Part shown: positions 15,179 through 17,091 of the stretch, one piece after another | Numbering within the stretch: position 1 is the stretch's first letter | Layout of the letters: each line of letters opens with the position of its first letter | Source of the DNA: Enterobacteria phage FtMidnight | Reading direction: 5' to 3' (one strand) | Length of the DNA stretch: 40,995 nucleotides | Sequence record: PP430152.1 | Translations under genes and position numbers: made by a program | Notes under the pieces: model-generated | Told to the model about the DNA's origin: nothing | Databases searched by the model: none | The model's input: the letters and a program-made list of their open reading frames with translations, nothing else

Positions 15179-16180
15179 ATGGCTTACACAATCGGAACGA
15201 TTACAAAAGGCGGCGGAAAGTTCGCGCATGAAAATTTCATTACTCACATTCAAAACCAGCTTGAAAGTTTTGGTTATGTGACTGAACGGGCGGTACTTTC
15301 CGGGGCTAACCATGAACTGATTATGCGGGCTTCTGGTTATTCCGGTGAAGAAGAATTTTATATTGGTTTCAAAACCTTCACGGATAGCAACACCATTGGA
15401 AGCCAATACTTCAACATTGGTGTTATGGTTTCAACTGGTTTTGTTTCAGGCAATGCTTTTGAGAACCAAACAAACGGGCAAGTAAAATATGTTCGTGCGA
15501 ACGGAAACGCTTTTGATTATGCAATAAGCATTTCTTTACAGCGCGTTGCCGGGTCTTTCTTTACCAAGGGTAAGTATTCGCAACCTTTTTACTTGGGTAA
15601 GTTTTTCAGCTATTCGGCAACATACGAACAGCCGCTTTTTGTTGGTGGAAATATACCAAGTCCTACGCATGGCGAAAACATAAGCAGTTTATTTTCAACT
15701 GCTGAAAATAGCCCCTTTGATGTTTATCAAAGTAGCGGCAATACTGATGTTGCTGCTATTTTTGATGGTTCTGCAAGTTGGATTCAATACCGTCAACTTG
15801 ATTTTCCAATGAGTTCGCAAGGTAGCGCTTATGCTTATGCTTCTGTTGCTGGTATTTTTTCAAGGCAAGTTCCCTTCAATGATTTTCTTTACATGGAACC
15901 AATGTGCGTAGCACAAACAAAAGGAAACAACCTAAACCCAATTTCATTTTATGGCGAACTTGAAGGGCTTTATGCTGTTCCTTCTTGGAACAATGAAGCG
16001 TTTAATGCTATTCAAGTTGGCGGTTCCTATGTTGCAAATGTTGATGGCCTTTCAGTTGCCGCCGCCATTGCTGCAATCTTAAACGTACCGGGCGCAAGGG
16101 CTTTTGTTACAATCCAACAATTCCCGAACGGTGCTAGCATAAATTACGAACAACCCCTTATGGTATTGGAGTTAGACTAA
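15179..16180 (+). CDS. hypothetical tail protein
   Basis: 333 aa; RBS GGGAG; start overlaps the tape measure stop region (TAAATG); Ser/Gly/Asn-rich. Confidence 0.4.
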   Translation: MAYTIGTITKGGGKFAHENFITHIQNQLESFGYVTERAVLSGANHELIMRASGYSGEEEFYIGFKTFTDSNTIGSQYFNIGVMVSTGFVSGNAFENQTNGQVKYVRANGNAFDYAISISLQRVAGSFFTKGKYSQPFYLGKFFSYSATYEQPLFVGGNIPSPTHGENISSLFSTAENSPFDVYQSSGNTDVAAIFDGSASWIQYRQLDFPMSSQGSAYAYASVAGIFSRQVPFNDFLYMEPMCVAQTKGNNLNPISFYGELEGLYAVPSWNNEAFNAIQVGGSYVANVDGLSVAAAIAAILNVPGARAFVTIQQFPNGASINYEQPLMVLELD

Positions 16181-17091
16181 TGGCCTATGTTACCGGAAGT
16201 GCCGCCAACTTTGGCGACTTGAAAACAGCAATTGAAGTTGCAGCGGTTGGCGCTGGTTGGACGTTGGCTGATGGTGTTTTAACCAAAGGCGCGGCCAACT
16301 TCAAGCTTGAAGTTCTTACTTCAACGCGGGATTATTTGGCGCTTTCTGCTGGTACTGGTAAAAGTGGTTCAGACCTTACCGGCGCAAATACTCGCAAGCT
16401 TGTTTTTCGTGACAATGCTTCAGGGCATACGTTCGCCTTTCCAATTGCTTATCATATTGCGGCATTTGAAAGCCCTGATGAAGTGTATGTTTCCATAAAT
16501 TACAATACTGACTTTTGGCAACATTTCATGTTTGGCATTTCTTCCCGCAATGACATTGGGAACGGCTTTTACATGTTCGGCACAGGTAACGACAACCAAG
16601 TTACCGCCACATATCAGGCTTCAATTTCAATTTCTCCAACAAGCGGTTTTAGCTTTAGTTCAACAAACAAATTTACCCCTATGTTTGGCGGAACAACAAG
16701 CAACTTAACCAGCAATGGTGCAACAGGCTTCATTAACTGCAATATCGGCAGCGGTGACGAATGGTACAATTTAATTGCGCCCGTTCAATCGCTTTGCAAG
16801 GTTCTTGCTAGTTTGCCAAATGCGTTTTCTGCTGATGAAATGATTTTGCCTGTTAAGCTGTTGGTTGCAATGCCAGCGCCTAATACCTCATACGCGCATT
16901 GTTTGGGTATTCTTAACAATGCGCGATTGCTTAGAAATGACAACCGTTCTGATGGTGAAGTTATTACGGTTGGTGAAGCAAATTGGAAAACATACCCGTC
17001 AATTGCAAAAAATGCAGGCGCTCGCAACGGTGGGGGTAACGTGCTTCATTGTGGAACTTTCGGGTTTGCTGTTCGGTATGACGGGGCTTAA
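16180..17091 (+). CDS. hypothetical tail protein
   Basis: 303 aa; TAATG coupling to the upstream gene; shares the MAY-x-x-G N-terminal start with the preceding ORF. Confidence 0.4.
   Translation: MAYVTGSAANFGDLKTAIEVAAVGAGWTLADGVLTKGAANFKLEVLTSTRDYLALSAGTGKSGSDLTGANTRKLVFRDNASGHTFAFPIAYHIAAFESPDEVYVSINYNTDFWQHFMFGISSRNDIGNGFYMFGTGNDNQVTATYQASISISPTSGFSFSSTNKFTPMFGGTTSNLTSNGATGFINCNIGSGDEWYNLIAPVQSLCKVLASLPNAFSADEMILPVKLLVAMPAPNTSYAHCLGILNNARLLRNDNRSDGEVITVGEANWKTYPSIAKNAGARNGGGNVLHCGTFGFAVRYDGA

Follow-up and report, generated by a model that had tools for sequence, protein, structure and literature searches.

Consecutive genes A and B downstream of the tape measure gene of Enterobacteria phage FtMidnight as probable counterparts of the JBD30 baseplate arm subunits gp47 and gp48

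The sequence record PP430152.1 of Enterobacteria phage FtMidnight (40,995 nucleotides, one strand, 5' to 3'; here called the window) represents an essentially complete siphophage genome (about 41 kb; G+C content, 46%). We studied two consecutive open reading frames that follow its tape measure gene on the plus strand: A, at positions 15179 to 16180 (333 amino acids, starting MAYTIGTITKGGG), and B, at positions 16180 to 17091 (303 amino acids, starting MAYVTGSAANFG). The two products are very probably paralogous subunits that build the lateral arms of a siphophage baseplate, A being the counterpart of gp47 and B of gp48 of phage JBD30 (Casadabanvirus). In JBD30, gp47 and gp48 are tail-fibre-forming proteins whose structures are available (PDB entries 8rk3 and 8rk5; Valentova et al., EMBO J 2024, PMC11445458). 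They have similar folds and form heterodimers, three of which make up each of the baseplate's three bent, protruding arms (PMC11445458). The features of the FtMidnight pair are as follows.

15179 to 16180, plus strand: protein A, putative gp47-type baseplate arm (tail-fibre-forming) protein (profile match to 8rk3_c; phrog_687)
15179 to 15286, plus strand: N-terminal strand-helix motif of A, amino acids 1 to 36, MAYTIGT...GYVTE (hhalign of A against B; alignment A3)
15659 to 15943, plus strand: hypervariable central region of A, amino acids 161 to 255 (column entropy profile)
16178 to 16182, plus strand: TAATG overlap of the stop of A and the start of B (read from the sequence)
16180 to 17091, plus strand: protein B, putative gp48-type baseplate arm (tail-fibre-forming) protein (profile match to 8rk3_S; phrog_687; fold)
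16180 to 16269, plus strand: N-terminal strand-helix motif of B, amino acids 1 to 30, MAYVTGSAANFGDLKTAIEVAAVGAGWTLA (model strand at 2 to 8 and helix at 11 to 24, with a predicted local distance difference test score [pLDDT] above 90)
16570 to 16809, plus strand: hypervariable, low-confidence central region of B, amino acids 131 to 210 (entropy and gap profile; pLDDT below 50 at 140 to 179)

Both proteins matched the family phrog_687 over their full length (E = 3e-21 for A and 1e-25 for B), and gp47 and gp48 of JBD5/JBD30 matched the same family (E = 1e-100 and 5e-97, respectively). For more sensitive comparisons, we built family profiles from A and B orthologues gathered from phage records and metagenomic contigs. 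The A-family profile matched PDB chain 8rk3_c (318 amino acids, gp47) at residues 43 to 276 (E = 2.4e-20), and the B-family profile matched chain 8rk3_S (307 amino acids, gp48) at residues 1 to 283 (E = 7e-14). The family profiles were needed for this, as single-sequence phmmer searches with A and B against the PDB sequences gave no match. In JBD5, the tape measure gene is followed by a gene for a 318-amino-acid protein and then by one for a 307-amino-acid protein, the latter product showing no difference from the JBD30 chain in the 289 residues compared. This gene order and chain identity together identify the 318- and 307-amino-acid chains as gp47 and gp48. In Pfam and NCBIfam, neither A nor B nor gp47 nor gp48 had a match. 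In PHROGs, phrog_687 is filed under "head and packaging", and its members are named "tail assembly protein" in many GenBank records; neither label agrees with the location in the baseplate seen in the solved structure.

Structure prediction pointed in the same direction for B. Its AlphaFold2 model had a mean pLDDT of 71.8 and a predicted template modeling score of 0.81, and Foldseek aligned it near full-length to both JBD30 paralogues (8rk3_G, E = 2e-8 over 351 columns; 8rk3_K, E = 3.5e-5 over 374 columns). As modeled, the gp47/gp48 fold is present along the whole length of B. The sole significant PDB matches of the model of A, which was poor (see below), were the same two chains (8rk3_K and 8rk3_G; E = 1e-5 and 4e-5, respectively; about 175 columns). 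Identity to JBD30 gp47/gp48 in the structural alignments was only 11 to 17%. In JBD30, gp48 binds gp47 through a helix at residues 216 to 224, and the model of B has a helix in the equivalent position (residues 202 to 211), ahead of a conserved LPN motif.

Next, we compared A and B with each other. A first-pass annotation made from the sequence alone had singled out this open reading frame pair behind the tape measure gene because of the starts MAYTIGT (A) and MAYVTGS (B), and these coordinates and residues were exactly right. Apart from A and B, no open reading frame of at least 90 amino acids in the window starts with MAY. The annotation had also called both proteins rich in Ser, Gly, Asn, and Thr, and these residues do make up 32.4% of A and 36.3% of B, compared with 21 to 32% in the other 22 tabulated proteins (the 272-amino-acid baseplate protein equals A at 32.4%). 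Its caution that the similarity is weak was justified as well: a pairwise BLASTP comparison was nonsignificant (E = 1.1), so that the resemblance is weak within this genome alone. At the family level, the similarity of A and B exceeded chance. An hhalign comparison of the two family profiles gave an E value of 5e-6, with residues 1 to 36 of A and 1 to 30 of B confidently aligned (29 to 30 columns). When the B profile was deepened with 148 further B-type sequences from an exhaustive profile search, the alignment reached 241 columns (E = 2e-6), with a score still dominated by the N terminus.

Within the N-terminal motif, A carries an insert relative to B, which appears as a six-residue gap in hhalign and as seven columns, covering GGGKFAH, in the MAFFT alignment A3. 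The A-type protein of Vibrio phage F23s1 lacks this insert and was the best match when A sequences were searched with the B profile (hmmsearch, 24 bits), in an alignment confined to positions 1 to about 30. Of the 148 B-family cluster representatives, 78 start with MAY, 25 with MAF, and 18 with MPY. The motif is plainer in relatives, such as Kakheti25 gp22 (starting MGYAIGTVTKSGGDDCHYQVLAIIKTLAEANGW) and gp23 (starting MAYITGTAASLADLKTAIENVCTANGW). The JBD30-type gp47 starts with MATEFGTATNHQNLVERLVQFLTAN (MATEFGT) and gp48 with MAYFTGTANNPADLLAKVRVHAESLGW (MAYFTGT); judged from these sequences, the motif is common to both paralogues even in the distant JBD30. In the B model, too, confidence is highest in the N-terminal strand and helix. 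We conclude that A and B stem from an ancient whole-gene duplication of one fold, of which the MAY-x-x-G strand plus helix is the best-conserved remnant. The first-pass annotation had proposed a receptor-binding duplication in which a shared N-terminal attachment module carries different distal domains. It was right about a duplication within the adsorption apparatus but very probably wrong about the different distal domains. The profile-profile alignment and structure prediction that it had suggested as checks gave a significant similarity, mostly N-terminal yet extending over 241 columns, and a full-length gp47/gp48 fold for B beside a poor model for A.

The two genes are tightly packed. The ATG of A comes directly after the TAA stop codon of the tape measure gene, the stop of A overlaps the start of B in TAATG, and the stop of B lies 2 nucleotides ahead of the next ATG. 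Abutting or overlapping A and B genes are also found in relatives. Such an overlap fits translational coupling, by which two subunits required in equal amounts could be made.

An A-B pair follows the tape measure gene in Septimatrevirus (Kakheti25 and PaMx42), Salvovirus, Abidjanvirus, Axeltriavirus, Mardecavirus, and Casadabanvirus, as well as in metagenomic contigs. For the B-type subunit, 1,566 cluster representatives were found at 50% identity (E values up to 0.001). A locus search with the B protein returned only one near-identical contig from IMG/VR (L007; 99% identity over the B protein). A word-indexed homologue search yielded 3 relatives of A and 10 of B, to which a search with the merged A and B alignment added three Vibrio B-type proteins and no more. 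At the nucleotide level, the sole blastn match of positions 15179 to 17091 to phage records was a segment at 16178 to 16265 (79% identity over 88 nucleotides; Guyu, TR, and Bhz58), which spans the junction of A and B together with the initial 29 codons of B. Most of this segment lies in the N-terminal motif of B. In Kakheti25, the homologues of A and B (gp22 and gp23) have been detected in virions by mass spectrometry, according to the record notes.

If the JBD30 virion is taken as a guide, A and B would be made in equal amounts from their tightly coupled genes and would form A-B heterodimers. With three heterodimers stacked in each bent arm and three arms on the baseplate, a virion would contain nine copies of each protein. 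Anchoring of the arms would fall to the upper baseplate protein and to the distal tail protein with its N-terminal part; in JBD30, arm attachment involves the upper baseplate protein and, in the distal tail protein, an N-terminal loop (PMC11445458). Through the arms, the phage would initially and reversibly bind a filamentous receptor on the cell surface, most likely a type IV pilus, and pilus retraction would then pull the phage to the cell. In JBD30, a 26-Å reconstruction combined with AlphaFold-Multimer pointed to arms that embrace the type IV pilus (PMC11445458). Type IV pili are also the receptor of the tested relatives with this module, namely, DLP1 and DLP2 (both seen attached along pili), Sano, Salvo, and TR. 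By column entropy, the most variable parts of the two families were amino acids 161 to 255 of A and 131 to 210 of B. The predicted pilin contacts of JBD30 fall in these variable regions, with gp47 D185 aligned to E176 of A and gp48 Y169 to F169 of B. In both proteins, it is likely the hypervariable central third that faces the receptor.

Several points weigh against the identification of A and B as gp47/gp48-type arm subunits or against their proposed role. The AlphaFold2 model of A had a pLDDT of 45, with moderate confidence only at around residues 1 to 140. It was built on a merged, shallow alignment, and the poor result is due to the presence of only three close homologues of A in that alignment. 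The full-length fold proposed for A is accordingly drawn from its sequence match to gp47, its own model aside. The disulfide C142-C174 of gp48 is not conserved. The baseplate is not identical to that of JBD30, as the gp54-type gene is lacking: neither a gene for a gp54-type tripod receptor-binding protein nor an annotated fibre gene was found in the window. The arm-pilus contact in JBD30 rests on the 26-Å map and AlphaFold-Multimer, and the pilus receptor of the present phage (46% G+C) is extrapolated. Finally, a 2026 preprint named the distal gp54-type fibre as the determinant of pilin specificity in JBD26/DMS3-type phages.

The last points are the basis of a different explanation, in which the arms are structural decorations or stabilizers of the baseplate, and the receptor is recognized by the C terminus of the hub or by the N-terminal domains of the distal tail protein. 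Besides the preprint and the low resolution of the arm-pilus map, this would fit the proposal by the DLP1/DLP2 authors that the Phage-tail_3 hub is the pilus binder. However, the gp54-type fibre is absent here and in all Septimatrevirus-type relatives, and yet those tested use pili. The arms are also the outermost element of the baseplate in JBD30, and they vary most in their central regions, as expected of surfaces that contact a receptor. We therefore consider a purely structural role unlikely. Another explanation holds that A and B are two modular receptor-binding proteins with a common N-terminal anchor and unrelated distal receptor-binding domains. The similarity of A and B is indeed carried statistically by residues 1 to 36 in hhalign, hmmsearch reached positions 1 to 30 alone, and the central regions vary highly. 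This explanation is nevertheless already largely refuted by the near full-length alignment of B to both JBD30 paralogues and by the A/B profile alignment over 241 columns, and its chances seem very slim.

It is hardly conceivable that A and B are nonstructural tail assembly proteins or chaperones, as the "tail assembly protein" annotations on the homologues in Salvo, AXL3, and F23s1 would have it: gp22 and gp23 are found in mature Kakheti25 virions by mass spectrometry, the JBD30 virion structure resolves gp47 and gp48 in the baseplate, and the genuine chaperone-type genes precede the tape measure gene. Just as little credence can be given to a catalytic pair in which A is a hydrolase of the nitrilase superfamily that degrades cell wall material and B its noncatalytic partner. 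This idea derives from the JBD30 paper, which classed gp47 in the nitrilase superfamily (PMC11445458). We rejected a nitrilase (CN hydrolase) identity for gp47 and A, as a family-profile match together with a conserved Glu-Lys-Cys triad was not found.

With the pair taken as gp47/gp48-type arm subunits, a further-reaching idea can be put forward, although it is tentative and we would sooner doubt it than rely on it. In this lineage without a gp54-type distal receptor-binding protein, the A-B arms might be the sole primary receptor-binding device, with specificity residing in the hypervariable central loops of A and B and with the N-terminal strand-helix (about 30 residues, conserved in the two copies over more than 1,500 clusters) serving as a shared docking element for the alternation of the paralogues in the arm. 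The pair might then represent a widespread filament-grasping adhesin that has no Pfam or NCBIfam family.

The neighboring genes place the pair in a tail module that can be compared with that of JBD30.

11747 to 15178, plus strand: tape measure protein, 1143 amino acids (Pfam TMP_3, E = 3e-46; phrog_3336, E = 5e-237), which fixes the place of the pair in the tail module
17094 to 18950, plus strand: distal tail protein (Dit), 618 amino acids, JBD30 gp49 type (phmmer against 8rk3_U, E = 2.8e-13, residues 185 to 606; phrog_1082)
18956 to 19774, plus strand: upper baseplate protein, 272 amino acids, JBD30 gp50 type (Pfam PF09356 [Phage_BR0599] and PF09931; 8rk3_g, E = 4.7e-12)
19777 to 22194, plus strand: baseplate hub/gpJ-like protein, 805 amino acids, JBD30 gp53 type (8rk3_o, E = 6e-52; Pfam Phage-tail_3)

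The three proteins encoded downstream of B thus each matched a JBD30 baseplate chain: the 618-amino-acid protein gp49, the 272-amino-acid protein gp50 (a chain named DUF2163 domain-containing protein), and the 805-amino-acid protein gp53. On these matches, the whole tail-tip module appears to be JBD30-like except in two respects, namely, the lack of a gp54-type protein and a fused hub N terminus. Dit proteins, which form the ring below the tail tube, are usually encoded directly behind the tape measure gene. We considered a Dit identity at this position and rejected it, as A and B match no Dit family and the Dit homologue is the 618-amino-acid protein at 17094 to 18950. Residues 1 to 184 of this protein (17094 to 17645) did not align to JBD30 gp49, whose N-terminal domain wraps the arms; these residues probably covary with A and B.

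Residues 1 to 71 of the hub (19777 to 19989) matched phrog_1180 and PDB chain 8vjh_U, "Tail assembly protein 1" (E = 4e-5). Elsewhere, the phrog_1180-type protein is a separate protein of about 76 to 78 amino acids, and JBD5 and Ab19 have two small open reading frames at this position. The hub N terminus of this lineage looks like a gene fusion. The hub gene is the last of the tail module, and its stop overlaps the stop of a convergent gene for a 682-amino-acid DNA polymerase (22191 to 24239), and the same layout of hub and convergent DNA polymerase genes occurs in Kakheti25 and PaMx42.

Two observations concern the genes upstream of the tape measure gene. Two small open reading frames at 10545 to 10973 and 10994 to 11344, with frames offset by -1, correspond to the tail assembly chaperone pair gp18/gp19 of Kakheti25, which is annotated with a programmed frameshift. 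The tail tube protein (8935 to 10479) is unusually long, at 514 amino acids. Its match to Pfam Phage_tube_2 spans residues 12 to 487 yet covers only 266 profile positions, and this wide span on few positions implies one or more insertions totaling about 200 amino acids, possibly a decoration domain.

The results provide a structural and functional assignment for proteins that are labeled "hypothetical," "structural," or "tail assembly" across a large group of siphophages. The group covers Septimatrevirus and relatives, many of which are candidates for phage therapy against Pseudomonas, Stenotrophomonas, and Xanthomonas/Xylella. The JBD30-type arm pair emerges as an old and widespread module, and the central variable regions of both subunits are where host range determinants should be sought in phages without a classical tail fibre gene. 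In a limited literature search, we found no paper assigning a gp47/gp48 identity in Septimatrevirus-type phages. For the gp67/gp68 pair of Lydia, JBD30-like arms of three heterodimers have already been proposed by its authors (PMC11946847).

Among known systems, Septimatrevirus (gp22/gp23 of Kakheti25 and PaMx42) shares with the FtMidnight locus the gene order from tail tube to hub, the convergent DNA polymerase gene after the hub, and orthologues that are 31 to 36% identical over their full length. That group includes the pilus-dependent phages DLP1, DLP2, and TR; the present phage differs in being a distant, unclassified relative with a G+C content of 46%. Mesyanzhinovviridae (gp67/gp68 of Lydia [PMC11946847] and Ab19) also carry a paralogue pair after the tape measure gene, whereas they keep separate small open reading frames in the hub region. 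The A-type gp67 of Ab19 (L004, 3662 to 4933; 423 amino acids) has a Gly/Thr/Ser-rich insertion of about 100 amino acids right after the N-terminal helix, a site which, from this sequence, appears to tolerate an extra domain in the A-type subunit. JBD30 itself is a Mu-like transposable phage, whereas the present phage has its own DNA polymerase gene. In addition, JBD30 gp47 lacks a segment of about 25 amino acids near the C terminus of A (amino acids approximately 283 to 310), JBD30 possesses a tripod receptor-binding protein of the gp54 type, and the small proteins encoded ahead of its hub are fused to the hub in FtMidnight. The A-B pair is a divergent example of a known and structurally solved system rather than a new kind of system, and its value lies chiefly in annotation.
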